Of a stretch of DNA of 64,000 nucleotides, positions 18,699-37,754 are shown piece after piece. The DNA lies in the IMG/VR virus record IMGVR_UViG_3300036831_000050, positions 18,354 through 82,353 of that record, one strand, 5' to 3'. This stretch comes from a virus. Numbering within the stretch: the stretch's first letter is position 1; each line of letters opens with the position of its first letter. The notes under the pieces are model-generated. The model saw only the letters and a list, made by a program, of their open reading frames with translations, searched no databases and was not told where the DNA came from. The translations under genes and the position numbers were made by a program.

Positions 18699-19358
18699 AT
18701 GATTGAAGCCTGCTCCACTGGCGGAGAGCAGACGGTTGGGGACCTTCGGTCCTTCGAGGGATTAGTCGTCAGCACCGCACGTATGTTCGCCTCCCGCATT
18801 GGCATGGAGGAGGACGACCTGGCGCAAGAGCTGCGCATCAAGGTCTGGAGCGTGATACCCCGCTACGACCCGGCACGCTCGCCCCTGACACTGGAGCGGT
18901 ACGTCTTCGGCGCGCTCACCAACAAGATCAAGGACTTCAAGCGCGGCGCGGGCCGAGAGGCCAAGCGCCGTGTCACGTTCGGGGTGGAGTTTCTGCACAT
19001 CGAGGACATGCGTGGCTGGGATGACCTGTCGCGCCAGGAAGCCTTCGATGGCCAGTTCCACTTCGTTGAGCGCGAAGAGGTGTTCTCCCAGATCGAGGAA
19101 GGGCGCTTTGTCCTACCCGCTGGTGTGACACACACCGAGGCGCGCGTGCTCGTCCTCCTGATGACCGACCACACCAAGAGCGAGATCGCGCTCCGGCTCG
19201 GCATCACCAAGACCGAGGTGTTCCGGTCGATGACGGCGTTGCGCGAAAAGTTTGCCGACTGGCGGCCGTCGCGGCCGAACTCCAGTCAGGTCGTAGAGAT
19301 CAGCACCGTACAAACGGTGCGGGCCGAGGACCAGCTAGTAGGGAGCCGCGCGGCGTAA
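18699..19358 (+). CDS. ECF-type sigma-70 family factor
   Basis: Region 2 EDDLAQELRIKVW...YDP...LERYVFGALTNKIKD; region 4 HTH TKSEIALRLGITKTEV; near-leaderless after TGCTAAGCT extended -10. Confidence 0.85.
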   Translation: MIEACSTGGEQTVGDLRSFEGLVVSTARMFASRIGMEEDDLAQELRIKVWSVIPRYDPARSPLTLERYVFGALTNKIKDFKRGAGREAKRRVTFGVEFLHIEDMRGWDDLSRQEAFDGQFHFVEREEVFSQIEEGRFVLPAGVTHTEARVLVLLMTDHTKSEIALRLGITKTEVFRSMTALREKFADWRPSRPNSSQVVEISTVQTVRAEDQLVGSRAA

Positions 19359-19444
19359 GGCATGCCGAACCAAGGTGCGCCGCGTATGGTCGTGGACCCC
19401 TGGCGGAAGAACCCGAACACACTCTCGACCCTCTGACGGCCGTC

Positions 19445-20049
19445 CTACGTGGCGGCCGTCGTCGTTCCTGACTGCTTGAGCTTGTGCTGGTGCTTCGCCC
19501 CCGTCGTGTGGGTCCGGGCGATGTTGACAGCGATGGCGTGGACGCCCTGCGTGGTGCCCTCGTAGTCACACATCGTGCACTTCGGGGTGTAGCTGCCGTC
19601 GCCGTTCCAGCGTACGGTGGCCACGTCGCCCTCGCGGACGATCTCCTCGCCGTCGTCAGTGAACCTGACGCTCACGGTGCCCTCCTCGCGGCGGCGTTGA
19701 GCGCGTCTAGCGAGTGCTGCATGCGCTCCACCTCGTCCTTCAGCTCCATGAGCTTCTGTTCGGTGTAGTGGGCCTCCAGGGGGATGGCGGCGCGCATCGC
19801 CTCCTCCATGGTGTCGAAGTCGCCAGCGCGTCCCTCCCATCGCTGCTGGTTCTTCCAGCGTTTGACGTGACTGCCCACCTCGTCCAGCGCCAGCACCCAG
19901 TCCTCGCGGTCGTCCTGGCCATCGCCAAAGCCACCATGGGCGCGCAGCCAGCGCAGCCCGTCAACCTCCACCTCGGCGTCGTACTTCATCTCCCGCCAGT
20001 GCCCCACCTTCAGCATGGCAGGCTGGTCCCAGTAGGTGATCTCGCTCAT
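19445..20049 (-). CDS. Two hypothetical proteins (19445-19675 C2H2-like; 19672-20049)
   Basis: Coupled leftward ORFs; CTMC...H....H. Confidence 0.6.
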
Positions 20050-20609
20050 GTGATTCCCCTTCTACGGGCAAACTCAGGTCCGGTGCTAATGCCTGGCTCC
20101 CAGTCTCGCTGGCGCCCCTTGTCCGGGCCGGGGCCGAGCACGGCCTGCATTGCCGCGCGAGACTCGGCCTCGGTCTTCACGTCGCGGTCGCGGAAGCCGA
20201 TCTCCAATGTGACGCCAGCCTCCATGACCCAGAGGTGGGTCTGGTTGGCCTGGTCCACTAGACGGCTCTCGCGCGGGAACAGCTCGAATGCCTCCCGCTC
20301 CCAGCCTGCGATCTCGTTCTTGATCGACTGGAGGTGACGCCAGTCACGGGCAGGCTCGCGGTCGTACCGCTTGATCGACAGGTGCAGGGCGCCTCCCTTG
20401 CCGCGCGGCTCGATGTAGCGCACGATGACTTCGTACTGGTCGTTCGCCCACACCTCATGCACTTGGTCAACGAACGGATTGGCCGACGCCCCTGACGTGT
20501 GGAACGCCGCCATCTTCCTGACGAACTCCGGGTCGATGGGCCTCTGTGTCAGGGGTGTCCACCCAGAAGCCTCTCCACTCTCCGCCGTGCTCTGTGGTGA
20601 CGGTTCCAT
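20046..20609 (-). CDS. Conserved phage hypothetical protein
   Basis: HLSIKR.D...DWR.LQ.IKNE...E.FP.ESRLVD.AN..HLW motif common in phages. Confidence 0.7.
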   Translation of the reverse strand: MEPSPQSTAESGEASGWTPLTQRPIDPEFVRKMAAFHTSGASANPFVDQVHEVWANDQYEVIVRYIEPRGKGGALHLSIKRYDREPARDWRHLQSIKNEIAGWEREAFELFPRESRLVDQANQTHLWVMEAGVTLEIGFRDRDVKTEAESRAAMQAVLGPGPDKGRQRDWEPGISTGPEFARRRGIT

Positions 20610-20881
20610 GCTGTATCGCTCCCTCGTTCGCTAGGTGTTGTAGGTGCCTGCCGAGCCAGCGCCGTTCGTTCCGGCGACGGCGGTTCAGCGACTTCCACTC
20701 CGGGGTGTCGGCCCAGAGGTAGTACAGGTCAGTGGCGGACTGCGGTTCGCTCGTAAGCAGCGGCACCGGGTCGCCGTACTTCTCGATGAGTGGGTGTGTC
20801 ATAGCCGTGGCCAGTAGTAGCCGAGCATCATGCCCGCGATGAACGCGAGCACGCCGACCGCGAAGCACCAGCCGACGGTGC

Positions 20882-21904
20882 TCATGCTGCCAGGCCCATG
20901 CGCCGAGCGAACTCCTCCGAGGCCGCCCCGAACGCAGAGGACACGTCACTGTTCGCGAGCTTGACGTACTCCATGGTCTGCTCGATGCGAGCGTGACCGG
21001 CCGCGATCTGCATTTGGACCAGCGGGATGCCCGCAGCGGCCCAGCCAGTGATGGCAGTGTGACGCAGGCGATGCCAGCGCCACGGTCCCAGGATGCCCAG
21101 CGACTCGCGGAAGCTCCGCACGCTGAGCGGTGCGAGCTGCTGATCGCGCAGCCCGTCACGTGTCAGGGCCAGCCACGGTGAATCGTGGTCCGGCCTTAGC
21201 AGCCAACGCAAGTCCAGCCATTCGCGCATGCACTCCCTGGCGTGGGGGAAGTAGGGCACGGCACGCATCTGCGGCACGCCCGGTCCCTTCTTCGCGGTCC
21301 TGACCACCACGTCGGTGTTGTCGTAGTGGAGCGCCGGGATGGTAAGCGTCATGATCTCGATGCTGCGTAGCCCCTCCTCGATGGCGAGCGCGATCTGTGC
21401 CTCCAACTGCACGCGCCGTGCGTGGCGCAGGAGGTGACGGCGCATCGCCGGAGACTTGCCCTGCACGAACCGCGTGAGCAGGCGAGACCCGCGCCCGTAG
21501 GCAGGCAGCGCCGGGTACACCTCAGCCAAGCGGCGCCGCATCTCCGCGACTTCGCTCTGCTTGTAGGGGTTCGGCTTGCCGTGGCTGGTGCTGCCACGCG
21601 GGTTAGGAACAGACTGAAGTTGAAGCGTACGGTCCGTGTCGATGAGATCGGCCTCGCTAGCCCAGGTGATGAACGAGCGGATCATGATGCGGTACTTGCG
21701 CGTGGTGTTCGGGGACACACCGCGCTTCAGCTCGGCGCCCAGGAACGTGGTGAAGTCCTGTCGCGTCAGCTCGATGAGCGGGTGGTCCAGTCCGGCCTCG
21801 AAACGACGAAGGACGCGGAGCTGTTCGCCGCGCCGGTCGGGACTGATGCTGTTCACCTCAAGGTACTCGGCCTCGAAGCGGGAGAGGAGTGTGTCGGTGT
21901 CCAT
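20882..21904 (-). CDS. Tyrosine recombinase / integrase
   Basis: SAM-like N-terminus (SPNTTRKY); catalytic R (GLRSIE), K, HRLRH, GH and Y (TMEY). Confidence 0.9.
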   Translation of the reverse strand: MDTDTLLSRFEAEYLEVNSISPDRRGEQLRVLRRFEAGLDHPLIELTRQDFTTFLGAELKRGVSPNTTRKYRIMIRSFITWASEADLIDTDRTLQLQSVPNPRGSTSHGKPNPYKQSEVAEMRRRLAEVYPALPAYGRGSRLLTRFVQGKSPAMRRHLLRHARRVQLEAQIALAIEEGLRSIEIMTLTIPALHYDNTDVVVRTAKKGPGVPQMRAVPYFPHARECMREWLDLRWLLRPDHDSPWLALTRDGLRDQQLAPLSVRSFRESLGILGPWRWHRLRHTAITGWAAAGIPLVQMQIAAGHARIEQTMEYVKLANSDVSSAFGAASEEFARRMGLAA

Positions 21905-21928
21905 GTGGGTCTCCGTGTCGGGTGATGG

Positions 21929-21964
21929 GGCGCGGTGCTACACGGTACGGTGTAGCACCGCGCC
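21929..21964. repeat. Perfect 15-6-15 bp inverted repeat upstream of the recombinase
   Basis: GGCGCGGTGCTACAC-ggtacg-GTGTAGCACCGCGCC. Confidence 0.85.
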
Positions 21965-21972
21965 TGAGGCAA

Positions 21973-22812
21973 CTACGTGGCGAAGGGGTCGTCGCCCTCC
22001 TGCTGGAACTCCGGCTCGGTCGGCACGCCGGGACGCTCCTCTTCGACACGCGCACCCACGGCGGCCAGCTCGCCGCCCTCGACCGGCTCAGTAGTCGAAC
22101 CAGTCGTCCCAGCGGCGTCGGCTGGGGTAGGGTCCGGCTCGGGGGTAGAGGCAGACTCCTGTCCACCCGTAGGAGGCGCTGAGGGAGCCGGAGCGGCCGT
22201 CTGAGCGGCAGCCTTGGCCCCGGCCTTGGAGCCGGTCCCGTTCCGCGATGCCCCGGCCTTGGCGGAGGACCGCTTCGGCTTCGGCTTGGCGCCGGACAGG
22301 GCGGCCTCGGCAGCGGTGAGCTGCTTCAGCTCGTCGGCCCGGTTGGCCTCCAGCTTGGCGTGCGAGTCCTTCTCGCTGTTGTAGACCTTCTCGGCCTCAG
22401 CGACACGCCGCGCCGACTCGGTGATCTGCGCCTCGATCTCCGACTTGCGGTGCCTGATCGCCTGGAGTGGCGTCATGGCCCTCGCCTCAGCGACCGGAGC
22501 GGGCGCAGGGGCAGGCGTGGGGCGCCGTGGCGCCCTCCGCGTGGTGCTCTTGCGTGTCGCGCTCCGTCGCGTGCTCGGCTTGCGAGTGGTGCTCTTACGA
22601 GCCGTGCTCTTCCGGGCAGTGCTCTTGCGAGCGGTGGTGCGCTTGGCACCGGCACGCTTGGTGGTGGCACCCGACGCGCCCATGCGGCGAATGTGCTGGT
22701 AGATGCTGTTGACGTTGACCTTGAGCGTCTTCGCCACTTCGGCGGGAGTCTTGCCCTGGTCAAGCAGGTCTTTGACCTGCTTCTGCTTCGGTGTGAGTGT
22801 GGCAGTGGCCAT
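21973..22812 (-). CDS. HTH DNA-binding protein with histone H1-like repeats and coiled coil; repressor candidate
   Basis: LTPKQKQV...KTPAEVAKTLKVNVNSIYQHIRR HTH; (K/R)STARK repeats; GAGGAGG RBS; operator over its promoter. Confidence 0.75.
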   Translation of the reverse strand: MATATLTPKQKQVKDLLDQGKTPAEVAKTLKVNVNSIYQHIRRMGASGATTKRAGAKRTTARKSTARKSTARKSTTRKPSTRRSATRKSTTRRAPRRPTPAPAPAPVAEARAMTPLQAIRHRKSEIEAQITESARRVAEAEKVYNSEKDSHAKLEANRADELKQLTAAEAALSGAKPKPKRSSAKAGASRNGTGSKAGAKAAAQTAAPAPSAPPTGGQESASTPEPDPTPADAAGTTGSTTEPVEGGELAAVGARVEEERPGVPTEPEFQQEGDDPFAT

Positions 22813-22850
22813 GCGGCCCCTCCTCTGGTTGGTTGATGTGTAGCTCACGG

Positions 22851-22867
22851 TGTTGCACTGTACTACA
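22851..22867. promoter_or_regulatory. 17-bp operator overlapping a leftward -10 (TACAGT)
   Basis: TGTTGCA-ctg-TACTACA. Confidence 0.7.
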
Positions 22868-22969
22868 GGTGGCGGTTAGTTGTGAGATGTTTCTGCCAGT
22901 TCGTCCACCATCTCGGCGGCGGACTCATGGCTCATGCCGAACGTCTGGCCCAGCGCGTCGATGATTTCG

Positions 22970-23887
22970 TCACGCGGGTACTCCAGCGTCAGGCACAGGC
23001 GTGTCATCGCTTCCGGCGTTGTCAGCCTGCTCGGTATCGACATGACGCTCTCCTCTCAGGCGTCGGCGGGCCTCGTCGGCCAGCATGAACTTGACGGTGC
23101 GGCCAAGACTGGTCCCCAGCACGGCCTCGGGTTCCTTCAGCGTGCCACTGTCCCCAGGTGCCAGCCAGGACCCGTACTGGCAGTGGAAGTAGACCTTGCG
23201 CGTCCCGTCCACGATGATGCGGGCATGCCAGTAGCCGCCCGTGGGATGGCGGCCGAAGGTGTCTTGGCCACGGGCGTCCTTGTCGTATCGGATGCGGCGC
23301 AGCTCGTAGTCCTCACCGATGGCCTGGTTGAGCGCCTGTCGGGCGGCTCGGCTGGCCCGCTCGACTGCCGTGTCAGTCCTCGCCACCTCCCACCTCCAGT
23401 TGCGTCGTAATGGTGGTCACGCAGCAGCCCCGGCACACGGGGCATGCGATGCGTAGGGTGGGCGCGCCGATCTGGCCCTCGCCCTGGCAGCGTCCGCACG
23501 GCACGACGGCGACCCCGGCCATCGCCCGCTCGATGAGTGCTCTCTCGCCGTTCATGACTCCTCCAGTTCTCGTAGTCGTGTGCGACCGTGGTCGGTGATG
23601 GTGTAGTAGACGCGCCGTCCTCGGAAGAACGCACCGCTCCGGCGCGCTGGCTTGGCGTAGTTGTGGTGGGACAGGCGCACGAAGACCTTTTGCAGCGTGC
23701 GCTCGTTCCAGCGGTTAGGCTCGTCCTCGGTCCAGCTATGCGCACTGCCCGTGCCCTTGCGCTCTGTCATGACGCGCAGCACGACTCTCTCCTCATAGGT
23801 ATGCAGTGCTCGGCGGTACTTGTAGGCCCTGGAGATTTTTCGCCACGGCGAAGTCCGCCTCTTACGACGCAACTTGAGTGGCGTCAT
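22970..23887 (-). CDS. Three hypothetical proteins (22970-23386, 23373-23555 Zn-finger, 23552-23887 possible winged helix)
   Basis: Coupled leftward ORFs; CGRC/CPVC; YYTITDHGR. Confidence 0.55.
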
Positions 23888-24615
23888 AGGGCACGCCTCG
23901 ACTCTGCGATGGCCAGCCCCGTGTCTCCCACCCACGGGTTTGGCAGGCCGTGAATGCGGACCACGGTGGGCGACCAGCGGTCGTAGATGTCGGCCGCAGT
24001 GCTCATGCCCTGGCCCAGCAGGCCCTCGCCAATGCTGTCGTGACTGACGAACAGGTCGAACAGCACGCCGTCAACCGGCTCGATGCTGCTCGGGTCCACC
24101 GTGTAGAAGTCGTCGCACACGATGTCCAGCTTGTCGTGGGGCACGTGGGGCGCCACCAGCCTTATCACGTCCCGCTCGCGCTCAACGACCGTGATGTGCT
24201 CGACGCGGGGGTTCGCGGTCAGCGTGTGGACCATGAGGCCCAGGCCGAGGCCAGCACACAGCACGTGGCCGGTCAACGCCTCCGCGTGCTCCTCCATCGC
24301 CCACCAGTGCGGCGGGTCGTCCACCATCCACGTCTTACCACCAATCTGGAGATCAGTGATAGGCAGCGGGCGGTTGTTCTCGAAGTACAGGAAGCCGCGC
24401 TGCATGTAGTTCCGGTAGATGCCGGGTGTGTACTGGAACGTCACGATCTCCGCCTTGCCCACGCGGGTGCGCGGGTAGTCGGTGGCTGGCGTGTGCCAGG
24501 CGTCCAGCCTCACGGTGTCACTGCGCAGCGGGCCACTGGTGATGCCGCCGCACGTGAGGCAGACGTACTGCTTCGGGCGCACCGACGGGCGCAGGCATGT
24601 GCACTGGTTGGGCAT
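23884..24615 (-). CDS. SAM-dependent methyltransferase / spermidine-synthase-like protein
   Basis: HVLCAGLGLG motif I, ITVVERE, DIVCDD, DGVLFD. Confidence 0.7.
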   Translation of the reverse strand: MPNQCTCLRPSVRPKQYVCLTCGGITSGPLRSDTVRLDAWHTPATDYPRTRVGKAEIVTFQYTPGIYRNYMQRGFLYFENNRPLPITDLQIGGKTWMVDDPPHWWAMEEHAEALTGHVLCAGLGLGLMVHTLTANPRVEHITVVERERDVIRLVAPHVPHDKLDIVCDDFYTVDPSSIEPVDGVLFDLFVSHDSIGEGLLGQGMSTAADIYDRWSPTVVRIHGLPNPWVGDTGLAIAESRRAL

Positions 24616-26916
24616 CAGATGACGCCCTCCACTGCCCAGCCAAAGCTCCCCCAGCGCGGCTCGGTCGGGGCCTTCGGACCGACCAGGCGCACGCGGTGCT
24701 CGACGCGATTGCGTGGCTGGTAGCTGCGCTCGATCTCGTTGGAATCACTCTCGCTGGCGGGCCGACACATGTCGAAGCGCAGCATGTCGATGGGGAACTG
24801 GCCGGTGCCAGCGACGGTGAAGTTGTACGTCCGGGGAATCTTCGGGTAGGTTCGCGGGACGCCTCTAGCTCGGGTCATGTCAACTCCGTTCGGTTGGGAT
24901 CGTATGGCAGCTTGAGAATCGGGAAGTCGTGGCGGCTGTTGTCGTACCGGGCCGGGTCGTGCTGTTCGAGGGAATGGTGGATCAGCTCCGAGGTGAGGCG
25001 GTCCAGCATCGGGAGGCCGAACTTGCCGTCGTGGTCGTTGACCAACCGCACATCGAAAGTTAGGCCGTAGTAGCCCCAGTGCTCGGGCGGCAGGAACTTC
25101 ATCTTGGTCTCGGGACTGCGCGCCCTGTCCAAGTGCTGTAGCGGGAATGTCAGCTCCAGCATCTCACCGTCCGGCGCCACACACCAGGCGTGAGCCAGTG
25201 GCACGCCGTAGCCTGTCGTGTAGTAGCCCTCGCAGTAGGTCAGCGACGGGTCGGCGTTGGCGGCGTTCTGTGCGTTGGCGAAGCAGTGCCCCAGGTCGCC
25301 TTGGTGCGGCATGTACTGGGCGGGCAGCAGGCGGCCGGGGTAGAACTTGCCGTGCCTGAGCGCAAGGTCAGCACCCCCGCGATAAACGTAGCCGTCACCT
25401 GGCGAAAATTGCGCAGCCTCTTCCAGTCGCTTACGACGCAGCTCAAGTTCACGGGTAAGCGATGTGCGCACGCGCTCCTCGGGACTGGGCAGCACGCCGT
25501 CAAGGAAGGTCATTGCCGCTGCTCCCACCTCTCCAGCGTCGTAGCCGCGACGGCGCGTGCGTCGGCCGTGGACTGGAACTGGTGTCCACGGGCCTCGGCC
25601 ATGCAGAGCTGCTGAAGTGACTCGATGTGCTCCTCGGCCGCCGCGAGCCGCTTGAGCAGGTAATCAACGTCCTCGGCGGAGTGTGCGATGAAGTCGGCGT
25701 CTGGGACGTGTAGACCCTTGAAGTCCTCACGGTAGAGCGCGTCCTTCACGCCGATGGCGCCGCCCTGGTCCATCTCCCACTGCGCCTTGGTCCTGTAGCC
25801 CAGCACCTCGTACCGTGGGCCGGACTCGCGGTAGGACCGCATCGAGCCGTCGAAGCGGAACCGTATGTCAGGGTGGACCTGCACGCCGCGAATCAGGTTG
25901 GGGAACTGATCGCTGCTACGGCCGAACTCCAATTGGAGCCAAGTCTCGAAGCGACGGCTGGCCTCGGCCGGGTCCATGTCGCCGCGCATGAACTCGCGCA
26001 GCTCGTCACACAGGCACGGCGGCGGGAAGTCCAGATCGGAGTCACTGTGCGCAGGGCACCACTTGCCGATGACATTCGCGCGAGCCTGCTCCAGTGTGTA
26101 GCTCTCCATCTCGTCCTCGTCGTAGACGTACTGCTCGTTGCGCAGCGTGGGGGTCATGATGTAGAGGCGCCCACGGTCCGGTGTGCCAAGGTAAACCTGA
26201 TCGGTCTCCGTGTTGCCGAACCAGTCCCACGGCGGCGGGGTGATGCTCTCGAAGCGTTCGCGAATCTCGTCCAGCTTGCTGCCGCTGACGGTTGTCATCG
26301 GTCCTCCTCTAGCGCGCGGTTTACGTGGTCGATGACCTGCTGGCGGCTGGTCACTTCTTCAACGGGGAGTGCGGGCTGGCCGATGGCGATGTAGCAGGCG
26401 TCACAGATGACGGTCTCGCCATCGAATGTGCCGTCATCGTCCATGCTGTCGTACCCGCCATAGACGGACACACACTCGCGCCCCTCGTAGCAGTTCGGGG
26501 ATCGCTTGGCTCGGCACTTGATCTGCATTACACGCTCTCCTCTTGGTGGTGGACACTGGCGGCGGGAAGGTCGCCTAGCACGGCGCCGAGATCGGCCTCG
26601 GCCGCCTCGCGCGTGCGGTAGGTCATGAACTCGCCCCGGTTGGTGGCGTAGACCTTGATGACGGCCTTGCCGCCGCACTCGATGACGAACTCGGCCGGTA
26701 CGGTGGCGGCGATGGCCTCGGCCGTGGCCTTGCCGGTGGTGTAGGTGACGGCACTCATGCTGGTGTCACGTCCACCAGACCGACGATGTGGAAGTTGGAT
26801 AGCGCCGACTCCACGTCCAGCGCGATGCCAGCGGCATCGACATCGCCGTCCTCGATGTAGAAGTCGTCGTCCTCCTCGATCTCGACCTGCACGCGAATCT
26901 CAACAACCACACTCAT
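24615..26916 (-). CDS. Six hypothetical proteins (24615-24878, 24875-25513, 25510-26298, 26295-26528, 26528-26758, 26755-26916)
   Basis: Contiguous coupled leftward ORFs; the last (53 aa, acidic) was read directly from the sequence. Confidence 0.6.
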
Positions 26917-28118
26917 AGCTGCCTCGCTCTCTCGATTCCGGCGTCGGTGAGCTGGCGTCCGCCGTGGGTCACGCAGACGTAGCCCTCCTCGATCAGGTAC
27001 GGCTCAACGAACAGCGCCACGGCCTTGGTGTCGCGTGAGTGGCCCAGCGCCGTGGCGATGGTGTTCACGCTGGCCTGGTAGATGACAGTGTTGTCCACCC
27101 GCCGCGTCCGCTTGGAGCGGAGCAGGGACTTGAGCATCTTCTGCATGTCGATGGTCAGGCCGTCTAGCGTGCAGCCGTTCAGATCGCGGACCACGGCCTC
27201 CGCGTCGGCATCGGTCACGGGATCGCAGCCGAGCGCCATCGCATTGCGGACGTAGGTGTTGACCTGCCTCGGGTTACGCCGTGACGCAAGTCCGAAGATA
27301 GCCTCGGCCTCTGGTGTCAGGTGCACTCCGAGCTGCTGCCCGTTGAGGTGGGCCAGACTGGTCATGTCCGCGAAGGTGTAGGGGTCCAGCGTCAGGGTCA
27401 GCGGGAAGCGGTTGCAGAACGCTTCCGGCAGCAGGCCGATGTCGGTGGTGCAGCCGATGAAGGTCACGGCCGGGAAGGGCAGCATGCCGCTCTGTGTCGG
27501 CAGCCGACGGTCCTCCATGACGTGATAGAAGTCCTCGGGGTCGGCAGCCTGCGTGACGCCTCGCCTGTCGCCGGAGACCTGCTGATGAATCTCGTCCACG
27601 ATGACGACATCGCCGTCCTCGCAGGTCGTGCGCAGCGCGTCCAGCGTCGCCAGATCGACCGGGGCCTTGATCTGGTACACACGCCGTCCGCACTCATGAG
27701 CGACGACCTGTGCCAGCGTGGTCTTGCCGGTGCCCGACTGGCCAGCCAGCATGATGTGGTCCAACGGACGACCTGAAGTTCTGCTGTTAGCAACGATGCG
27801 GGCCATGAGGCGCTTGAGCCTGTCCTGGCCGATCATCGTGTCGAACGTGGACGGCCGCAACTTGTTGCCGCTGCGGTCATCGAAGCTCAGTGGCTTGAGC
27901 TGGACCTTCGGGCCGGTGGCACCGTCGCCCCAGATGGCCTGGTGAATCGCGCGCATCTCCCGGGAGAGCGGGTCCTGGCCAACCTCACGCATGAAGTTGG
28001 GGTAGCGGTCGTGGAGACTCTGGCCGTGGCCAGCGGGCACGCGGCCGGTCGGTGTGCCGCCGCCGTGGTCATGGTGTCGGGCGATGCGGGCGGTGCGAGA
28101 AAGATCGTGATGGTGCAT
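26913..28118 (-). CDS. ruvB: Holliday junction branch-migration ATPase RuvB-like
   Basis: LRPSTFDTMIGQ, LDHIMLAGQSGTGKTTLA, DEIH, IGCTT, NPR, EPYLIEEG...THGGRQLT; GGAG RBS before ATG 28118. Confidence 0.85.
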   Translation of the reverse strand: MHHHDLSRTARIARHHDHGGGTPTGRVPAGHGQSLHDRYPNFMREVGQDPLSREMRAIHQAIWGDGATGPKVQLKPLSFDDRSGNKLRPSTFDTMIGQDRLKRLMARIVANSRTSGRPLDHIMLAGQSGTGKTTLAQVVAHECGRRVYQIKAPVDLATLDALRTTCEDGDVVIVDEIHQQVSGDRRGVTQAADPEDFYHVMEDRRLPTQSGMLPFPAVTFIGCTTDIGLLPEAFCNRFPLTLTLDPYTFADMTSLAHLNGQQLGVHLTPEAEAIFGLASRRNPRQVNTYVRNAMALGCDPVTDADAEAVVRDLNGCTLDGLTIDMQKMLKSLLRSKRTRRVDNTVIYQASVNTIATALGHSRDTKAVALFVEPYLIEEGYVCVTHGGRQLTDAGIERARQL

Positions 28119-28146
28119 GTGTGCTCCCATTCGGTAGGGCGGAGAG

Positions 28147-28163
28147 TGTAGCAGCGTGCCACA
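28147..28163. promoter_or_regulatory. 17-bp operator overlapping a leftward extended -10 (TGCTACACT) of ruvB
   Basis: TGTAGCA-gcg-TGCCACA, exact consensus. Confidence 0.75.
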
Positions 28164-28185
28164 CTCTCCGCACTGTCGTGGTTGG

Positions 28186-29241: not shown

Positions 29242-29282
29242 GTGGTCACGCTCCTAACGGTGGGATTGCAGTTGGTCGGTTG

Positions 29283-30980: not shown

Positions 30981-31040
30981 GTTGTGCCTCCAGTGCCGCC
31001 GCGCCGATGTGCGCGGCGGCCGGTCGTCGGTGTCAGAGTC

Positions 31041-32276
31041 CTACTCGTCGTCATCATCGTCGTCGGTGCCGGACAGGTAGCCGACCACCCACTTGTGATA
31101 GCTCTTGATCTCGGCTACAACTTCGCGGGTGACAGACACGTCCTCGCCCTCGGCCTCGCCTTCGGTGATTTGGTCCTTGCCCTCGTCAAGCAGTTTCTTG
31201 AGCTGAGTGGCGAACTGCCACCCTTCGCCCATCTTGTCACGGCGCTCGGCCTCGTCCAGCTTGGCCGCGTCCTGCTCCAGCTTCGCCATCTCGGCCCGTA
31301 CGGCCTCCATGGCCTCGCGCAGCCGCCTGGCCTTGCGAGTGAACTTGCTGGCGAGATCGGTCACGATGTCGCGAGCTGGCTTGTGGTGGTCAGGCAGACT
31401 CCACGCCATGTGCTCGGCAACGAGGAAGTCGTCCATGACCACGGTGTCACGGCCGCGCAGCCAAGCGCGAGACCGCATCGCCCGCCAGATGTCACGCTTG
31501 CGCCGCTGGGAGACCATGAAGCCAGCCTCCAAGCACTTCTGCTCCAGTTCGCCCATCTTCTCCAGCACCGGCTCGGGCACTGGGATGGCGCGGGCAGCGT
31601 CGCGGATCGTCTTGATGTCGTCCAGCGTGAGCGGTTCGAGATCAGTGGAGTCGATGCCGTCCACGTCATAGCCGAGCTGGATCAGTGACACCGACTTGCG
31701 TCCCTCCGGCGTCTGCACCGGCTGAACGACCTTGGTGATGGCGATTCGGTCGCGGAACGCCTGCAAGTCCTCGCGGTCAGGCAGCTCGTTCGATGACATC
31801 AGAATCGTGATGAGCTGCGAGCAGTCGATGACCTTACCGCCGATCTTCAGTTGGCGCTTAGCGAAGATGTCCAGCAGCGGGTTGAGCATCGGCGGCGACC
31901 CCTTGAAAATCTCGTCCAAGTAGGCCAGGTTCGCCTCGATGAGCGAGCCAGCGGTGATGCGGGCGGTCCGGCCTTCCTTCATGGCCATCACGTCCTTCTC
32001 GCCCAGCAGCTCGGACACGCTCTGGTCCTTCGCCAGGAGGTGCGTGAACAGCTCGGCGGCGTCGATGCAGTAGTCGGTCAGCAGCTCGATGAGCCAGGTC
32101 TTGCCGACGCCTGGGTCGCCCAGGAAGAGCAGGTCGATACCTGAGATGATCGCGATGGCCAGCAGCTCGATCTCCTCAGTTCGCTCGACGTTGTTCCGAG
32201 CGAGGAAGCCGGTCTTCGGGTTGAAGATGGCGTCGAACCGAGCGTGTAGCTGGCTCGTAACGGTGGTCGTGGTCAT
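31041..32276 (-). CDS. MoxR-family AAA+ ATPase (RavA-like)
   Basis: GDPGVGKT, YLDEIFKG, SSNELP, AFRDR. Confidence 0.9.
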   Translation of the reverse strand: MTTTTVTSQLHARFDAIFNPKTGFLARNNVERTEEIELLAIAIISGIDLLFLGDPGVGKTWLIELLTDYCIDAAELFTHLLAKDQSVSELLGEKDVMAMKEGRTARITAGSLIEANLAYLDEIFKGSPPMLNPLLDIFAKRQLKIGGKVIDCSQLITILMSSNELPDREDLQAFRDRIAITKVVQPVQTPEGRKSVSLIQLGYDVDGIDSTDLEPLTLDDIKTIRDAARAIPVPEPVLEKMGELEQKCLEAGFMVSQRRKRDIWRAMRSRAWLRGRDTVVMDDFLVAEHMAWSLPDHHKPARDIVTDLASKFTRKARRLREAMEAVRAEMAKLEQDAAKLDEAERRDKMGEGWQFATQLKKLLDEGKDQITEGEAEGEDVSVTREVVAEIKSYHKWVVGYLSGTDDDDDDE

Positions 32277-32315
32277 GCGAGTCTCCAGTTCGCTAGTGGT
32301 TGACGGGAGTCAGAG

Positions 32316-32351
32316 TGTAGCACGGTGCCACAGGTGTGGCATCGCGCATCA
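32316..32351. promoter_or_regulatory. Tandem 17-bp operators overlapping a leftward extended -10 (TGCTACACT)
   Basis: TGTAGCA-cgg-TGCCACA (exact) and TGTGGCA-tcg-CGCATCA. Confidence 0.75.
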
Positions 32352-33274
32352 GGTTGTGGCTCGTTCGATGTCGCTTGCAAGTCTCTGCATTGCTCGCGCA
32401 ATCGCCTTCGCCAGGTTCGGTGGCGTGATTCGTGGTCCATCGAAGGACACCATGGGTCCGGGCATGAATCTCGCGACCCGTGCCACGCGCTCGCCTTCGT
32501 CATCGAGCACGTGGTAGACGCCCTCGTACTGCTTACTGACGCGGTAGGTAATCACGGCACTGTCACCACCCCGCGAGCGGCCCACTCCTGAGCAAGCTCG
32601 GCCTCATGCTGGACCTGCTCGGCGCAGCTCTCGGCCATGGACGCGGCCTCGGCCTTGATGTAGCCCTCGTCGGGTTCGCCAATGAAGCCCCACACGGACT
32701 CCATGACTTCGCCGCCCTCACGGTCACGTATCACGATGCCGAACACGTAGCCCTGGAGCCACTGGTCCAGTTCGTTGACGCGAGCCTCGGCGTACTTGGT
32801 GGCGTCATCGACCGAGCCGTTCCACTCGTCATCGAGCTGCTTCTGTGTGAAGCAGATGGCACAGTTCGGGCCGTCCTCCATGACGTACAGGCGAGCACCA
32901 GTTGACCCGTAGTCCGAGAAGAACAGCGGGATGGTGAGCACGGCGTCGTAGTTGTGACGCATGTAGGTCGGCAGGTCGCACTCGATGTAGCCGTTGCCCT
33001 CGCAGTTCGGGCAGTTCTTCTCGATTGGGTGGTCGTCGGCATCGAGCACTGGTTCGTCGTCCGACTCGACGGTGCCCTCACCCTCACAGTTCGGGCAGTC
33101 GATGGTCAGCTCCGGCTCGGAGATGCGTTCGTCGCCTTCCCACGTGCCGTCGTAGACCCACGAATAGATCGTGCCAGCGTTGTCGTTGTCCTGTGGGCTA
33201 GACACGGGATCGTCGTCGGGAACGATCTCGACCCACACACCAGCGTGTTCGTATGCCTCGGCAGGTTCGATCAT
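32349..33274 (-). CDS. Hypothetical protein (32349-32555) and acidic protein with CxxCxGxG repeats (32552-33274)
   Basis: CPNCEGEG and CPNCEGNG DnaJ-type zinc motifs; D/E-rich. Confidence 0.65.
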
Positions 33275-33275
33275 G

Positions 33276-33704
33276 TCAGCTCCTAATCAGGTAGTCGTCA
33301 CCGTCGTAGGTGATGGTTGTGTAGTCCTGGCGCAGTTCGTCGGCCGCCGCCTCCCAGTCGATGTGATTGAACGGCCAGCGGTTCGTGTCGTCCGAGATGT
33401 AGCCGAGATCGGTGGCCAGCTCCTCCGCGTACTCCGCGAAGTCGTCCTCGGCAATGAGCGTGGGTTCGTGGTTGTTGGCGTGCCACTCCAGCGTGTCAGG
33501 TTCGGCCGGATCAAGGCCCAGCTCGCCGCATAGGCTCACGTACTTCTCGACGTACTCCTGCTGCTCGTCTTCGGCCAGGAACTTCTCCGTGGCCTCGGCA
33601 ACCTCACCGTAGGACATGCCTTCGGTGTCGGGCACGCTGGACCCCATCTCGGCAATGCGTTCGCGCCACTCTTCAGCGATCTCTCGCAGGTCCAGTACGT
33701 TCAT
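33276..33704 (-). CDS. ArdA-like acidic antirestriction protein
   Basis: EDDFAEYAEELA...HIDWEAAADEL resembles the ArdA C-terminal YIDYEAxARDL; very acidic. Confidence 0.5.
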   Translation of the reverse strand: MNVLDLREIAEEWRERIAEMGSSVPDTEGMSYGEVAEATEKFLAEDEQQEYVEKYVSLCGELGLDPAEPDTLEWHANNHEPTLIAEDDFAEYAEELATDLGYISDDTNRWPFNHIDWEAAADELRQDYTTITYDGDDYLIRS

Positions 33705-35023
33705 GCTGTCACCTCCACGCCAGCGACGCCAGCGCCATAGGTCTCGGGAATGAGTCGGCGGTACAGGTAGGTTCGCAGGGCACGTGTCACCACATCGGCG
33801 GTGCCGTATCGCGCCTTCTCGCCACCCATGGTCCCTTCGTCTGGGTCCATGCCCAGGTGGATGAAGACGCCGGTATCGGAGTAGCCCGCTTCGCGCAGTG
33901 CGTTGACGAACATGCTCGGCACGTAGTACCGCTCGCGAATGTGCTGTTCGAGATGGTCAGTGCCGAACGCCTCAGCACGCGGTTCGTTGGGATCGCGCAG
34001 CGCGCAGCCCCAGCAATCGCCGCCACTGGGCAACTTGAGTCCGTTCGTAACCAGCTCGTTGACGGCATCGGCCACGAACTTGTTGATGCGCTTCTTCTTC
34101 TTCTCCAACTGGCGCTCGCGGCGAGCATTGCGCTCGATCTCTCGCCGGTTCGGACGCGGGGCATAGCCCTCGGCGTTGACTTCCATGCCATCGGTGAAGG
34201 GCACGCGGTTGCGTTCGTCCCACTCCCGGTAGAGCTTCCGCGCAGCCTTGACAGCTCGGAACTCCTCCAGATAGGCGTCCTGCCACGCTTCGCGGGTCTC
34301 GAACCGTTCGAGCATCGCTGTCATCTTCGCGTAGCCCTCGGTTCGGTTGCGACCCCAGCCGCCGCCGTTCATGGCCTCAGACCACGCGCGGTGCTGGCGC
34401 TCGAACAGCGCGCAGTGTGGGCATTGCTCCCACTTGTGTTCGTCGGCATCGGGGAACGTGGTCTCCGGCCGTGGGGCGTGATAGTTGTACTGCTCTTCGC
34501 GCCAGGCGGTTGCCACGTGCACGACACGCCGGACCTTCGCGGAGAAGTACCCGTCGCAGTGTTCGAGCGTGATGTCATCGTCGCGATGCTCGCCCTCACG
34601 AATGAACACCTCGCGGGTCTCCGGTTCGCAGGTCTCGGTGCCAGCGATGCAGCCCTCGGTGGGCTTGACAGGCTCAGGGCCAGGGTCGAGCGCGTGGAAC
34701 GGCTTTGGGATCGTTCGCTGCGGCCAACGCTCCGGGCGTGGGTCGTCTGGGTCCGGCTCAGCGCGCACGTACCAGTCGCCGCGCTCGCTCACAATGTGGG
34801 GCGTGACGGCCGAGAGTCTGTCCTTCGTGGTCACAGTTCGCCAGCCGCCGCTATTGAGCGTGACGCGGCCGTCCCTGTGGAACGTCGCGATGTCTGTGGC
34901 GTGCAACCTCAGCGCGTAGGTGTCCTCGTCGCGCCGTTCGATGCGAGTGTTGTTGGCGTACGGCTTTGACCGCTTATCGCGGGCACTTGAGACAAGCTGT
35001 TCGCACTGTGCGAAATCGAGCAT
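33701..35023 (-). CDS. Hypothetical protein
   Basis: 441 codons from ATG 35023 with AGGAG RBS; LNSGGWRTVTTKDRL motif. Confidence 0.7.
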   Translation of the reverse strand: MLDFAQCEQLVSSARDKRSKPYANNTRIERRDEDTYALRLHATDIATFHRDGRVTLNSGGWRTVTTKDRLSAVTPHIVSERGDWYVRAEPDPDDPRPERWPQRTIPKPFHALDPGPEPVKPTEGCIAGTETCEPETREVFIREGEHRDDDITLEHCDGYFSAKVRRVVHVATAWREEQYNYHAPRPETTFPDADEHKWEQCPHCALFERQHRAWSEAMNGGGWGRNRTEGYAKMTAMLERFETREAWQDAYLEEFRAVKAARKLYREWDERNRVPFTDGMEVNAEGYAPRPNRREIERNARRERQLEKKKKRINKFVADAVNELVTNGLKLPSGGDCWGCALRDPNEPRAEAFGTDHLEQHIRERYYVPSMFVNALREAGYSDTGVFIHLGMDPDEGTMGGEKARYGTADVVTRALRTYLYRRLIPETYGAGVAGVEVTA

Positions 35024-35045
35024 GATGGTCTCCTGTGTAGGTGGG

Positions 35046-35354
35046 TCAGTTGTCGTCCAGCGAGTACAGTCCGAACTCGCCGTCGTTCCAGCTCCAAGCG
35101 TGTCCTTCGAGCGGACGCTGTTCGTTGAGCCAGCTCTCTGCGTCGTCTGCGCAGTCCACCAGCCGCTCGAACTCGTCCACGTCCAGCGGGGGTTCGGTGC
35201 TCGGCCCCATGGCCGCGAGATGGCGCCGCGCGAGATCGCTCGCCTCGTCGTCCTCCCAGCCGAACTCGGCCGCAACTTGGACCGCACGCGCGAGCGCGTA
35301 CTGGCCCCAATGGCCGTCCACGTAGCACCCAGGTTCGGGCTTAGCATCGGTCAC
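35046..35354 (-). CDS. Small acidic hypothetical protein
   Basis: CGAACTGGAG RBS; D/E-rich. Confidence 0.65.
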   Translation of the reverse strand: MTDAKPEPGCYVDGHWGQYALARAVQVAAEFGWEDDEASDLARRHLAAMGPSTEPPLDVDEFERLVDCADDAESWLNEQRPLEGHAWSWNDGEFGLYSLDDN

Positions 35355-35497
35355 GACAGTTCTCCAGTTCGCTCGTAAGGTCGAGCGAGGTTGTAGGTGG
35401 GTTCTGGCGGGTTCGCGGGAAGTTCACCCGCGCGCAAGTCAAAGGTTAGGGCATGGCGCGAACCGCCGTACCCGACAGCTCGCGCCACAGTGCCCAA

Positions 35498-35584
35498 TCA
35501 GTCCTCGACGCGCGTGAGCAGTTCGTAGCCAGTGTCCTCAGGGACACGGAACGCTTCGCGCAGCCGGTGCAACAGTCGGCGCAT
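35498..35584 (-). CDS. 28-aa small ORF MRRLLHRLREAFRVPEDTGYELLTRVED
   Basis: ACAGGAGG RBS 6 nt upstream; below the ORF-track size cutoff. Confidence 0.45.
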   Translation of the reverse strand: MRRLLHRLREAFRVPEDTGYELLTRVED

Positions 35585-35599
35585 TGCCAACCTCCTGTG

Positions 35600-35950
35600 T
35601 AGAAGACTCCCGCGCGCAACAGCGCACGTATTCGCGCGGGCATTACTCACGGTGCGCCCGTGAGGGTTCGTGCAACATTCGACAGCACGTCGTCAGCAGC
35701 GGGCAGGAACCGCAGCTCGCTGTAAGCGGGGTCGTTGTTCGTGGCAGTGTGCCTCTGCCCTGTGGTTCGCTGGACTGGCGGAGCTTGCAGTGCGCAAGGA
35801 CACCAGCAGCGCGTGACGCTCGCGGCGCCACTGTTCGCGGCGGTCTCACACTGTTCGCCAAACAGTGCGAGTGTGCCGAGACCGTGTTCACGTCTGCGCG
35901 CGGCTGTTCGAGCACACGCGCACACGCGAGCACGGGGGATGGCCCCCCTG
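35600..35950 (-). ncRNA. Candidate structured RNA / leader with CGAAC repeats
   Basis: About 350 nt without a credible ORF; several perfect stems; repeated CGAAC. Confidence 0.4.
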
Positions 35951-35951
35951 C

Positions 35952-36269
35952 TCAGCTTGCGCCGAGCAGGGAAGCGATCTCCTCCGGGGTGATGACCGCG
36001 CCGATGGCCGCGCCGATGGCCGCGAGCGGGAGCGTTTGCTCCGAGCTGCCATCGCGCAGCACCAGCACGGGCACGCGGGTATTGTCGCGGCCGACCAGCC
36101 GCGCGCCGCGCGTGACATACGCGGCATCGGAAACCTCGGGCACGCTCGCGCGGGGTGCGCTCTTATCGACCAGCACGCGAGACTCGCGCCGCGCGGAGAC
36201 CTTGAAGTCTGCGAGCGTGTCTGTCTTCGCGGCCGGAGCGGCCGGGGTGGTCGTTGTCTTACCGGGCAT
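35952..36269 (-). CDS. Hypothetical protein, first gene of the leftward arm
   Basis: GGAGGAG RBS before ATG 36269; 105 aa. Confidence 0.6.
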   Translation of the reverse strand: MPGKTTTTPAAPAAKTDTLADFKVSARRESRVLVDKSAPRASVPEVSDAAYVTRGARLVGRDNTRVPVLVLRDGSSEQTLPLAAIGAAIGAVITPEEIASLLGAS

Positions 36270-36316
36270 AACTCCTCCGATCTCACGCGGGAAGGTCCCG
36301 CGAGTGTTGACTCTGA

Positions 36317-36479
36317 CACTAGGTACAGTGCGCCGCCCCCTGAAAAGGTTACGGGCCAACTGGCGGCCGAGCGTAACCTTTTGCCCGCTTGGCCCACTGT
36401 ACCTAGTGAAGGCGCCGAGCTGGCCCGCCACTGTGGCGGCCACACTAGGAACAGTGCTCAAGGCGCCGCAAAGGTTTCG
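36317..36479. promoter_or_regulatory. Three copies of the bipartite unit CGTAACCTTTT-N12-CACTGTACCTAGTG; candidate divergent ECF-type promoters
   Basis: Copies at 36317-36353 (-), 36372-36408 (+) and 36443-36479 (-, 3 mismatches), all with a 12-bp spacer. Confidence 0.65.
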
Positions 36480-36701
36480 GCCGCACATTGGCCGCGCCGC
36501 TCGCCCCACTCGCCCCACCCCGCCATGATTCGGCGGCCGTCCGCCAATGTGCGGCCAACACTCTGCGAGATTGCGCGAGCGGCGCGGCGGCCGTGCGGCG
36601 CGGCGGGTAGTACAAACGTCCAGAGTCGTAACCTTCCAACTGAAGTTGGCCGATAATAGCCGCGAAGCGGCTACCGGCCGCCAAACGGAAGGGAAGACCA
36701 G

Positions 36702-37754
36702 ATGTCACCCCGCAACACTCTCACCCCGGCCGAGCGAATCACGCTCAAGCGTGAAGTGTCGGCCGCCAGACTGGCCGCCAAGCGTGCCGCCGATGCCCGG
36801 ACCGAATCACTCCGGCCGAGCGGCGGGCCAGCACTGCTACCGAATCTGGCCCAAATGCGCGAGCTGCGCGGCCAGCTCGAAGCGGCCGAGCTGCTGAAGC
36901 TGGCCCGCTCCGCCGCACGTTTGGAGCTGCGCGGCGAACGGTACTCGGCAGATGACCGCGCCGATGTCGCCGCGTCCATAGTGGCGGCCGTGCTGGCCGA
37001 CACTGGCGGAGCGATGCCGCGCCGCGAATCACCCCGGATCAAACTTGGCCGCTTGTGCGGCGACGCGAAGAACTTGCGCCGCTCAATCGACGCGGCGCGG
37101 GAGCGTGACCAGCTCGAAGCTGGCCGCGAAGCTGCGCGGCATGCGCTCACGGCCGATGCTCTGGGCCACTCGCCCACCCCGGCCGCTCATGCCGCCATCG
37201 TGGCCCGCTCTGGGGAGCTGGCCGCCGAGCGTGCCGCCACTGCGATATGCGCCGAGCTTGGCCTACCGGCCGACCCGGACACGGCCGCTTGGAGCGTGCT
37301 CTATCAATGGGCACGCGGCGCCACTGGCGAAGTCTGCGCCGCCGAGCGTGGGGCCACGTGGGGAGCTTGGAAGGTCCGCCAGACACGCGGCGCCAAGTTC
37401 CTGCGCGAGTTCTACTCCGCCGCCGAGCTGATGGCGCGGCTAACGCTTGGCGCCACAGTGGGCGAGGATGGCGCGATTGTCTTTGCTCTGGAGGATGACT
37501 CGCGCGAAGCGCACGGCCGCACGCCGATCATGGCGCCAGACTGGCGCGAGCACCCCGACACGGCCGCGCCGATGCTCAAGCGGGCCATGTCACCCCGCGA
37601 GCGTGTCCACTGGCGCCGCCGCCGCGAGCATCGCGCCGACACGGCCGAGCAGACGGCCGCCGCTCTGGCCAGACTGGCCCGCGCGTATGCCACCAGCTCG
37701 CGCCGCGAACGTGCCGCCGCCAGAACTTCAGACCTACCCCGGATAGGAGGATGA
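36702..37754 (+). CDS. Highly diverged sigma-70/ECF-like protein
   Basis: Region-2-like DDRADVAASIVAAVL...LCGDAKNLRRSID and region-4-like WSVLYQWARGATGEVCAAERGATWGAWKVRQTRGAKFLRE; GAAGGGAAG RBS. Confidence 0.55.
   Translation: MSPRNTLTPAERITLKREVSAARLAAKRAADARTESLRPSGGPALLPNLAQMRELRGQLEAAELLKLARSAARLELRGERYSADDRADVAASIVAAVLADTGGAMPRRESPRIKLGRLCGDAKNLRRSIDAARERDQLEAGREAARHALTADALGHSPTPAAHAAIVARSGELAAERAATAICAELGLPADPDTAAWSVLYQWARGATGEVCAAERGATWGAWKVRQTRGAKFLREFYSAAELMARLTLGATVGEDGAIVFALEDDSREAHGRTPIMAPDWREHPDTAAPMLKRAMSPRERVHWRRRREHRADTAEQTAAALARLARAYATSSRRERAAARTSDLPRIGG

Follow-up and report, generated by a model that had tools for sequence, protein, structure and literature searches.

Genome layout and the two factor genes

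The DNA considered here is a window of 64,000 nucleotides (nt), bases 18354-82353 of the 82,353-bp IMG/VR virus record IMGVR_UViG_3300036831_000050. Its subject is a pair of phage genes at 18699-19358 and 36702-37754, predicted to encode an extracytoplasmic function (ECF)-type sigma factor and a probable, diverged sigma-like protein, together with the promoter-like sites that these two factors may read. All positions are those of the window unless genome positions are named. The record was obtained from a soil metagenome and is 94% complete according to CheckV; the phage is uncultured and has a guanine plus cytosine (GC) content of approximately 65%. Genes were called by third-position GC and annotated with Pfam. 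Ten related IMG/VR phage records (G1-G10) were analyzed together with the phage studied (G0), 11 genomes altogether. G1 shows approximately 44% identity in the second protein, and eight of the phages (G3-G10) were reached via the sigma family at 24-41% identity.

A block of plus-strand genes with a PD-(D/E)XK nuclease, a helix-turn-helix (HTH) protein, and the DnaB helicase (Pfam) ends with the open reading frame (ORF) at 18699-19358, the last plus-strand gene ahead of a convergent minus arm. The minus arm (19672-35347) carries an integrase, a RuvB-like ATPase, a DUF6744 protein, a vWA-like protein, and a MoxR ATPase. It is followed by a divergent spacer of 430 bp and then by a rightward arm, which opens with the ORF of 350 amino acids (aa) at 36702-37754. 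The large terminase lies at 56586-58343, and the large unnamed genes after it continue at the record start up to a 2075-aa ORF. The initial annotation had read the first ORF as an ECF sigma factor closing a replication operon and the second as the first rightward gene at the divergence point. Both statements are borne out, the former by a Sigma70_r2 match and by the nuclease and DnaB genes upstream, the latter by its place directly behind the divergent spacer.

A small ECF-type sigma factor

The gene at 18699-19358 (plus strand) encodes a protein of 219 aa (P0001), for which the source's own gene call (P0018, 191 aa) begins at Met29. Residues 18-86 match Pfam Sigma70_r2 with 26.9 bits, above the cut-off of 24, and the protein also matches PHROG sigma families, with one such match at residues 141-188. 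The NCBIfam model TIGR02937 (sigma70-ECF) is matched over profile positions 8-160 of 165 with an E-value of 4e-8 and 33 bits, which is below the curated cut-off of 42.9. For the C-terminal half, there is no match to Pfam Sigma70_r4 and a weak one to GerE (E 0.024, residues 144-185). The hits include no region 1.1 or region 3 family, and the 219-aa protein has a small two-domain build. It has 75 homologues, the majority of which carry PF04542. Judged by these profile matches, P0001 is a small, diverged, two-domain ECF-type sigma factor with a probable C-terminal HTH, and from this identity it is predicted to bind the core RNA polymerase and to initiate transcription.

A host-type extended -10 element, TGCTAAGCT, is located directly before this gene (18681-18689, plus strand), 10 nt ahead of the ATG. 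The form TGnTAnnnT occurs 11 times in the genome, and eight of these elements fall within the 7% of the sequence that is intergenic (18681, 38281, 38463, 41176, and 43660 on the plus strand; 43829, 32322, and 28153 on the minus strand). In six of the seven genomes examined, the 100 nt ahead of the sigma gene include such an element, and in five it lies 9-11 nt before a start codon. Most simply, the sigma gene would be read by the host polymerase. A serial sigma cascade, as proposed earlier, is unsupported by this arrangement, since the promoter before the sigma gene is of the host type and none of the bipartite units found at the divergence point (see below) is present there or anywhere else in the whole genome outside 36317-36479; nothing thus points to the 350-aa protein as the activator of the sigma gene. 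The gene at 38479-38697 has its GTG 8 nt past the end of the element at 38463, which is another likely leaderless start.

A conserved promoter-like motif before late genes

The sequence GGCGTANATTA is present in five exact copies in the window, all on the plus strand, a count that was reached in none of 100 shuffles; a sixth copy lies outside the window. The core CGTAnATTA thus has six co-oriented copies in G0. The first of those in the window, CGTAAATTA at 44540-44548, lies 31 nt before the ATG of the gene at 44580-44906, which is preceded by AGGAGG. The next, CGTATATTA at 49549-49557, places the GTG of the gene at 49564-50058 only 8 nt past the last T of TAnATT, and another copy of CGTAAATTA at 58955-58963 is followed after 9 nt by the ATG of the gene at 58971-59162, ahead of the 797-aa gene after the terminase. 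A fourth copy, CGTACATTA at 61921-61929, is again 8 nt (from the last T) before the GTG of a 443-aa gene (61936-63267).

The fifth copy in the window, CGTATATTA at 62494-62502 (plus strand), is located inside this 443-aa gene, where it is read as the codons CGT ATA TTA. All 11 genomes retain it at the orthologous position. Both ATA (57 of 1015 Ile codons) and TTA (9 of 2012 Leu codons) are rare in the G0 genome, and the retention of such codons at this place in every genome argues for selection on the DNA itself. This suggests that the internal site is a promoter selected at the DNA level. A nested in-frame start at the site was considered and rejected by coordinate arithmetic, as the nearby ATG and GTG codons are out of frame.

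The motif is conserved among the relatives, with 68 sites in the 11 genomes (six in G0 and 62 in the ten relatives), always on one strand per genome. The six copies of G1 are all forward and syntenic with those of G0 (spacings of 4608, 10287, 3189, and 576 compared with 5009, 9406, 2966, and 573), and the six copies of G2 are all forward as well. Each of G3-G10 contains 2-9 copies; the 50 copies found there all keep to a single strand within their genome, and a reversed-pattern control gave one hit. Variants with one mismatch on the late strand number two in G0, two in G1, and one in G2.

When the 68 sites are aligned, information is confined to positions -2 to +10, counted from the C of CGTA, and no position upstream of -2 exceeds 0.25 bit, so that there is no -35 box. 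An open ATG or GTG follows 5-11 nt past the last T of TAnATT at 29 of the 68 sites, with a mode of 7-8 nt, compared with 0-3 of 68 for five control anchors. Together, the missing -35 box and the nearby start codons point to a -10-only promoter, with TAnATT at -12 to -7, and to a leaderless mRNA. An ECF-type promoter with an AAC-containing -35 box does not agree with these sites; without such a box the motif is not a classical ECF promoter. We regard it as a real, conserved promoter class, predicted to serve the terminase and virion region. The assignment to late genes is drawn from the terminase and the gene order only. Accordingly, of the earlier statement that a motif precedes late genes for lysis and head proteins, the motif itself stands, whereas the lysis and head label is unverified, as only the large terminase can be named in this cluster.

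A diverged sigma-like protein at the divergence point

The 350-aa protein encoded at 36702-37754 on the plus strand (P0002) has a coding-type composition with a weaker third-position signal. It can be divided into an N-terminal extension of approximately 60 aa, a sigma-2-like segment (residues ~60-136), a sigma-4-like HTH (~190-238), and a C-terminal extension of approximately 110 aa, for which no match was found in Pfam or in a PDB profile search. The protein is conserved, with 15 proteins at 38-100% identity and 116 cluster representatives found by profile, all of approximately 270-500 aa.

Similarity to sigma factors is seen at the level of the family and its profiles. Pfam Sigma70_r4_2 is matched by 12 of 107 family members (best 6.4e-6) and by one of the 15 close homologues (2.4e-4); the other Pfam matches are to related HTH folds, namely HTH_10 (4/107), GerE (3/107), and HTH_23 (3/107), and Sigma70_r2 was found in none of the 107. 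Nearly all NCBIfam matches of the family are sigma models, including sigma70-ECF (6/107) and SigE-fam (4/107). One member, P0110, which belongs to the family with an E-value of 3e-49 to the family profile, matches TIGR02985 over positions 25-160 of 162 (E 2.5e-5; 24.6 bits against a cut-off of 126.4) and TIGR02937 over positions 11-162 of 165 (E 0.012), so that both sigma domains are covered. A search of the PDB with the family profile gave 12 hits (E 0.02-2), nine of which are sigma factors: SigJ as the best, CnrH, three SigE entries, an ECF sigma, 3hug, SigC, and sigma E. The remaining three are GerE, a UPF0122 protein, and a chemoreceptor. The printed alignments all fall on sigma region 4, with ECF sigma region 4 at E 0.02-0.15, and the same search with a 15-sequence profile found nothing.

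Direct comparison of the two families of this phage gives a similar picture. At a relaxed threshold, hhalign produced one colinear alignment of 144 columns, which places residues 68-136 on region 2 and ~190-238 on region 4. A family hidden Markov model (HMM) built from alignment A3 detected 18 of 76 sigma sequences at E<=0.1, compared with 1-4 in reversed or shuffled decoys, and its matches recurrently place positions 60-118 on sigma residues 30-90 and 183-213 on 130-180. The alignments of P0035, P0061, and P0156 extend over both sigma domains in the right order, and a sigma HMM matches the G4 homologue of P0002 at positions 58-185 (E 0.017). For residues 45-245, the Atlas protein-language-model neighbours, at 0.95-0.96, are phage clusters with Sigma70_r4, Sigma70_r4_2, Sigma70_r2, or GerE.

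A number of observations count against a sigma identity. P0002 itself matches no model in Pfam, PHROG, or NCBIfam, and every family-level hit is under the curated cut-off where one is reported. The hhalign comparison with the phage's own sigma family has an E-value of 0.012 and a probability of 3.5%. The shared-feature counts of the Atlas neighbours (149-165) are under the 170 typical of true family members, and the Atlas model of P0002 is poor, with a predicted template modelling (pTM) score of 0.29 and a TM score of 0.39 for the best sigma row. On balance, a sigma-2/sigma-4 build can be given a chance of about two in three, and P0002 is a probable, very diverged, and fast-evolving sigma-like protein. 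The region-2-like and region-4-like segments that the initial annotation had noticed in this ORF are consequently upheld weakly, by the family and its profiles, and not for the protein alone.

Two further features touch these proteins. A conserved A-x-D-W-R motif is found behind the HTH in both sigma-like families, where it was first seen as a second hhalign hit. The corresponding motif of P0001 occupies residues 186-190 (window ~19254-19268), with D187, W188, and P190 each present in 38 of 40 sigma family sequences; in P0002 it lies at residues 278-282 (~37533-37547), with W281 in 59 and R282 in 81 of 107 family members. It could be a docking motif shared by both families. In addition, an 80-aa ORF at 45632-45874 (plus strand) matches the HTH part of the P0002 family profile (positions 140-213, E 6e-4 in a seven-genome ORF set) and could encode a small stand-alone sigma-4-like protein.

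Bipartite units in the divergent spacer

Repeated promoter-like units had been noted beside the 350-aa ORF, and the repeats exceed the number in shuffled sequence: CGTAACCTT occurs exactly three times in the 82-kb genome, all within 36345-36635, while none of 200 shuffles reached three (shuffle mean 0.23). Likewise, the pattern G[TA]AACC-N16-CACTGT has three exact matches genome-wide and 0.0 in shuffles. Repeat and pattern scans delimit three CGTAACCTT-containing units of 37 bp, each of which consists of an 11-bp box, 12 free nt, and a 14-bp box, CACTGT(A/T)CCTAGTG. Unit B (36317-36353, minus strand; CGTAACCTTTT, 12 nt, CACTGTACCTAGTG) points toward a 105-aa gene, unit A (36372-36408, plus strand) has the same boxes and spacing and points rightward, and unit C (36443-36479, minus strand; CGAAACCTTTG, 12 nt, CACTGTTCCTAGTG) points leftward. 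AAC and ACTGTA are 18 nt apart, a spacing that fits ECF-type promoter geometry.

The 105-aa neighbour (P0199; 35952-36269, minus strand) has no Pfam or NCBIfam match and a single close homologue in a word-based search; its homologues adjoin the P0002 homologue in G1, G2, and G4. In G0, G1, G2, and G4, the genome's own repeated units are found between the homologues of these two genes. G2 has back-to-back units of the form GTAAGG...ACTGTCCC with the same 18 nt, and the units of G1 (GTAACA...CATGGA) keep the 18 nt with a different downstream box. The relatives thus carry their own versions of the units between their own versions of the flanking genes, which indicates that protein and sites change together. 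Such co-variation fits a private recognition pair, and would do so for a sigma factor with its promoters and for a regulator with its operators alike. In G10 (L084 15900-16200) and G7 (L099 12470-12760), where no P0002 homologue was detected, a small leftward gene, a repeat spacer, and a rightward gene of 358-413 aa are arranged in the same manner, and the divergence module seems older than sequence similarity reveals.

The promoter of the P0002 gene itself is probably of the host type. At 36624-36660 (plus strand), AGTCGTAACC is followed by 18 nt that hold the palindrome CAACTGAAGTTG and then by GATAAT, as read from the sequence. This region includes a fourth copy of CGTAACCTT, at 36627, which lacks the 14-bp box and has GATAAT 18 nt after it. 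A strict scan found no sigma-70-type site before P0002. At the equivalent place, G1 has TGCTACAGT and G2 has TTGACA-17-TAGCTT. The same region belongs to another small set of repeats, in which AGTCGTAA is followed by CAACTGA within 2-6 nt; this occurs three times (36624-36650, 63260-63280, and genome 11014, i.e., window -7339), always on the plus strand, with a start codon 45-75 nt downstream. The TAA doubles as the stop codon of the preceding gene in two cases, and a 26-nt stretch that holds the palindrome CAACTGAAGTT is common to two copies.

A separate palindromic operator

A palindrome of 17 bp, TGTnGCA-N3-TGCnACA, is present at eight sites (7785, 21926, 22851, 28147, 32316, 41155, 43767, and 48260), seven of which are intergenic and one in a doubtful ORF. 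Some of them overlap host-type -10 boxes, as do the sites at the TGnTAnnnT elements 28153 and 32322. With one mismatch allowed, the operator is enriched in G0 (7), G1 (5), and G7 (3); G4 has one and G2, G6, and G10 have none, compared with 0.00-0.20 in shuffles. All eight sites are more than 700 bp away from any late motif or bipartite unit, and the proposal that this operator overlays both promoter classes is not supported. A sigma-54 reading of TGTGGCA...TGC was rejected, as the spacing is wrong and the sequence is that of the palindromic operator.

Which factor reads which site

The explanation that we favour, at a probability of approximately 0.5, is that the phage runs on the RNA polymerase of its host and uses two phage factors and three or more promoter classes. 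Host-type extended -10 elements (TGnTAnnnT) would start early transcription, including that of the ECF-type sigma gene. The ECF-type sigma factor would then be the most likely reader of CGTAnATTA(gg) as a -10-only promoter, with TAnATT at -12 to -7 and CG at -14/-13, and would act like gp36 of phiEco32 or gp55 of T4. Late transcription would often begin at or beside the start codon and give leaderless mRNAs for the terminase and virion cluster. P0002 probably confers specificity for the three 37-bp units by its gene (AAC, 18 nt, ACTGTA), of which two would fire leftward and one rightward. Both pairings of factor and site, as well as the timing, are what we infer from sequence. From the earlier picture, one true ECF-type sigma factor, one probable sigma-like protein, and two sharply defined classes of sites unlike those of the host, namely the bipartite units and the late motif, are retained; the serial order and the operator overlay are not supported.

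The ECF-type sigma factor is favoured as the late reader because a conserved factor would match a conserved site: all 11 genomes carry both, while P0002 and its units differ from one genome to another. The motif is also unlike the host-type promoters of this phage, and it is all-or-none. On the other hand, TAnATT fits the general TAnnnT shape of a housekeeping -10 box, so that a host sigma factor could read it, and one would expect a two-domain ECF sigma to require a -35 box, which the late motif does not have. Co-occurrence is no help to the favoured pairing. A test linking the late motif to the ECF-type sigma rather than to P0002, which relied on the P0002 family seeming to be missing from four complete genomes (G6, G7, G9, and G10), proved uninformative. 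G7 and G10 have positional analogues of marginal similarity, the N-terminal motif of which can be aligned to residues 52-110 of P0002 (E 0.001 and 0.012, with six sequences in the database). All 11 genomes therefore probably carry both factors, and their co-occurrence with the motif cannot separate them.

Alternative explanations

The late motif may instead be read by the host housekeeping sigma factor, perhaps with a phage activator, and the ECF-type sigma could serve undetected promoters of another kind (middle or host); we consider this unlikely. The A at position 2 and the T at position 6 of TAnATT are those that housekeeping sigmas need, leaderless starts 7 nt past TAnnnT boxes are common in Actinobacteria, and the motif is without the AAC-type -35 box used by classical ECF sigmas. 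A sigma gene behind a host-type promoter could be made early, as this alternative would allow. A host reader would, however, hardly account for the sharpness of the motif, with six exact copies against no more than two one-mismatch variants on that strand, a fixed CG at -14/-13 and A at -6, and none of the TG of the phage's host-type promoters. Nor would it explain the restriction to one strand and one region in all 11 phages, every one of which bears the sigma gene. A -10-centred consensus read by a diverged phage sigma also has a precedent in gp36 of phiEco32, as far as the available part of that report describes it (PMC12276001).

For P0002, the main competitor is an HTH DNA-binding regulator, i.e., an activator, repressor, or immunity-type switch protein, with the units as its operators. 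This is doubtful, yet has several points in its favour. Only the HTH part of the family is repeatedly supported (by Sigma70_r4_2, HTH_10, GerE, and HTH_23) and the resemblance to sigma-2 is marginal; the gene stands at the divergent control region of an integrase-bearing phage; and protein and units change together between relatives, like immunity pairs. Unit length in two relatives also argues for operators and against promoters: G4 has three copies of a different, shorter unit (~29 bp), and in G7 and G10 a GGTAAC or GTGAAC core is repeated 3-5 times, the G7 unit being ~21 bp, and neither the G4 nor the G7 unit shows an obvious fit to -35/-10 spacing. Against a plain regulator, sigma alignments over both domains in the right order recur independently (P0110, the P0035/P0061/P0156 group, and the G4 homologue). 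The units are asymmetric, oriented, and fixed in spacing, with AAC-N18-ACTGT in G0 and G2 and 18 nt in G1, unlike dimer operators, and the genome has a separate set of palindromic operators. That the units are replication-origin iterons, or partition or packaging sites bound by a flanking protein, rather than transcription signals, is very improbable. They are clustered repeats of mixed orientation in a long non-coding spacer, found once per genome, as such sites might be; but their place is precisely the gap between two divergent genes, each of which is faced by one unit or more, the terminase is 20 kb off, the replication genes (DnaB and the nuclease) are 20 kb off on the other side, and no AT-rich unwinding tract was seen in the sequence of the divergent spacer.

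A bolder version of the favoured explanation can be put forward as speculation, and probably goes too far. These soil phages of roughly 80 kb may use two private sigma factors in parallel and not in series. One would be a conserved ECF-type factor freed of the need for a -35 box, reading an invariant 9-bp element for leaderless late mRNAs; the other would belong to a new, fast-evolving, and unnamed family of 116 clusters that co-varies with its own promoter triplet at the divergence point and serves as a phage-specific, immunity-like early switch. The ADWR motif might then be their shared docking point on the polymerase or on a common phage partner.

Comparison with known systems

Late promoters of T4 consist of a -10 box (TATAAATA) without a -35 box and are read by the diverged phage sigma gp55, which has no sigma-4 domain and depends on gp33 and the sliding clamp. 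The late promoters described here share the -10-only design; the difference is that P0001 probably has a C-terminal HTH. The cascade of SPO1 proceeds from gp28 to gp33/gp34, with each sigma gene behind a promoter of the previous sigma. In the accessible part of a recent account, SPO1 is described as using the host sigma for early genes and phage sigmas for later classes (PMC13401047). The present phage differs from it in that its ECF-type sigma gene stands behind a host-type promoter, with none of the units upstream.

The closest functional parallel is phiEco32, a phage of approximately 78 kb whose very diverged sigma factor gp36, with gp79, steers the host polymerase to middle and late promoters, according to the sections of the report that were available (PMC12276001). 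The same sections describe gp36 promoters as having one short consensus centred near -11.5 (AATGTA), with early genes left to the host sigma, and a structure in which gp36 still touches -35 bases (PMC12276001). As far as that text goes, the likeness consists of a distant sigma homologue with sigma-2-like and sigma-4-like domains and of a short, -10-centred consensus, as well as of early genes that would be left to the host sigma here too. The phages differ in that phiEco32 gives no tblastn match to P0001 or P0002, and the motif here is CGTAnATTA without upstream conservation. Leaderless late mRNAs and a second sigma-like gene do not appear as part of the phiEco32 system in the available sections.

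Bacterial ECF (group 4) sigmas, including the SigJ/ECF41 type with C-terminal extensions, provide a further comparison. They resemble the phage factors in their two-domain build, and SigJ is the best PDB hit of the P0002 family; the AAC-containing -35-like box with ~18-nt spacing in the units and the CGT in the late -10 element are also reminiscent of them. They differ in that P0001 and P0002 do not reach the curated cut-offs for whole sigma factors and that no anti-sigma gene was recognised. The gp53-gp52 module of mycobacteriophage D29 displaces SigA, as reported in the part of the preprint that could be consulted (bioRxiv 10.64898/2026.10.05.756390). From that part, the likeness is an actinophage HTH protein on the sigma-binding surface of the host polymerase, in a two-gene module. 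D29 gp53 belongs to Pfam PF25684, which is matched neither by P0002 nor by the 107 family members.

Relatives, host, and other features of the genome

Close relatives among cultured phages were not found by megablast of window 30000-40000 or by tblastn of P0001 and P0002 against 50,697 phage records. The terminase matched one mangrove-soil phage, with 29% identity. A profile scan (A1) of genome contigs revealed no relative, and the only match of P0001 among genome contigs is a partial one of 35% in a Clostridia metagenome-assembled genome. No literature on this phage group was found; supplementary files, where promoter lists of the phiEco32 type may be kept, were outside the search.

The proteins of the late cluster received no names from PHROGs, Pfam, or the PDB, except for the terminase, an RNase H-like protein, and a weak transglycosylase domain, and tblastn gave only a short match under a PhoH-annotated feature and a hypothetical protein of Mycobacterium phages. 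The RNase H-like protein (PHROG 531, E 1.6e-38) is encoded at 56069-56593 (plus strand), immediately before the large terminase, in the place expected for the small terminase. At 40530-41084 (plus strand), an Rpf-like protein may be encoded, a reading based on a weak Pfam Transglycosylas match of 25.7 bits, with a cut-off of 27. As a clue to the host, no tRNA genes were found in the genome. An actinobacterial host is our guess from the 65% GC, the weak Rpf-like domain, and the leaderless starts.

The final 60 nt of the record (genome 82294-82353; window 63941-64000) are repeated at genome 86-145. This recurrence near the record start implies that the record nearly closes on itself and that the late gene cluster spans the junction; such a closed arrangement is probable.

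Meaning of the two factors and their sites

Phage-encoded sigma factors are textbook timing devices, and to our knowledge nearly all studied cases come from Bacillus and enterobacterial phages. The present phage is a new example of this known strategy for the timing of gene expression, in which a sigma factor and a second, probable one are combined with a sharply defined late promoter that is shared with relatives. The 11 uncultured, high-GC soil phage genomes share one ECF-type sigma factor and one invariant late promoter that is easy to recognise, which offers a ready-made orthogonal pair for testing. The late motif is also predicted to provide a clear-cut example of a phage whose late mRNAs are leaderless. 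If the 350-aa family is shown to be a sigma family, it would be an unnamed and rapidly diverging one, the promoters of which can be read beside each gene. Even if the pairings fail, the conserved motif marks the late operons in these genomes.

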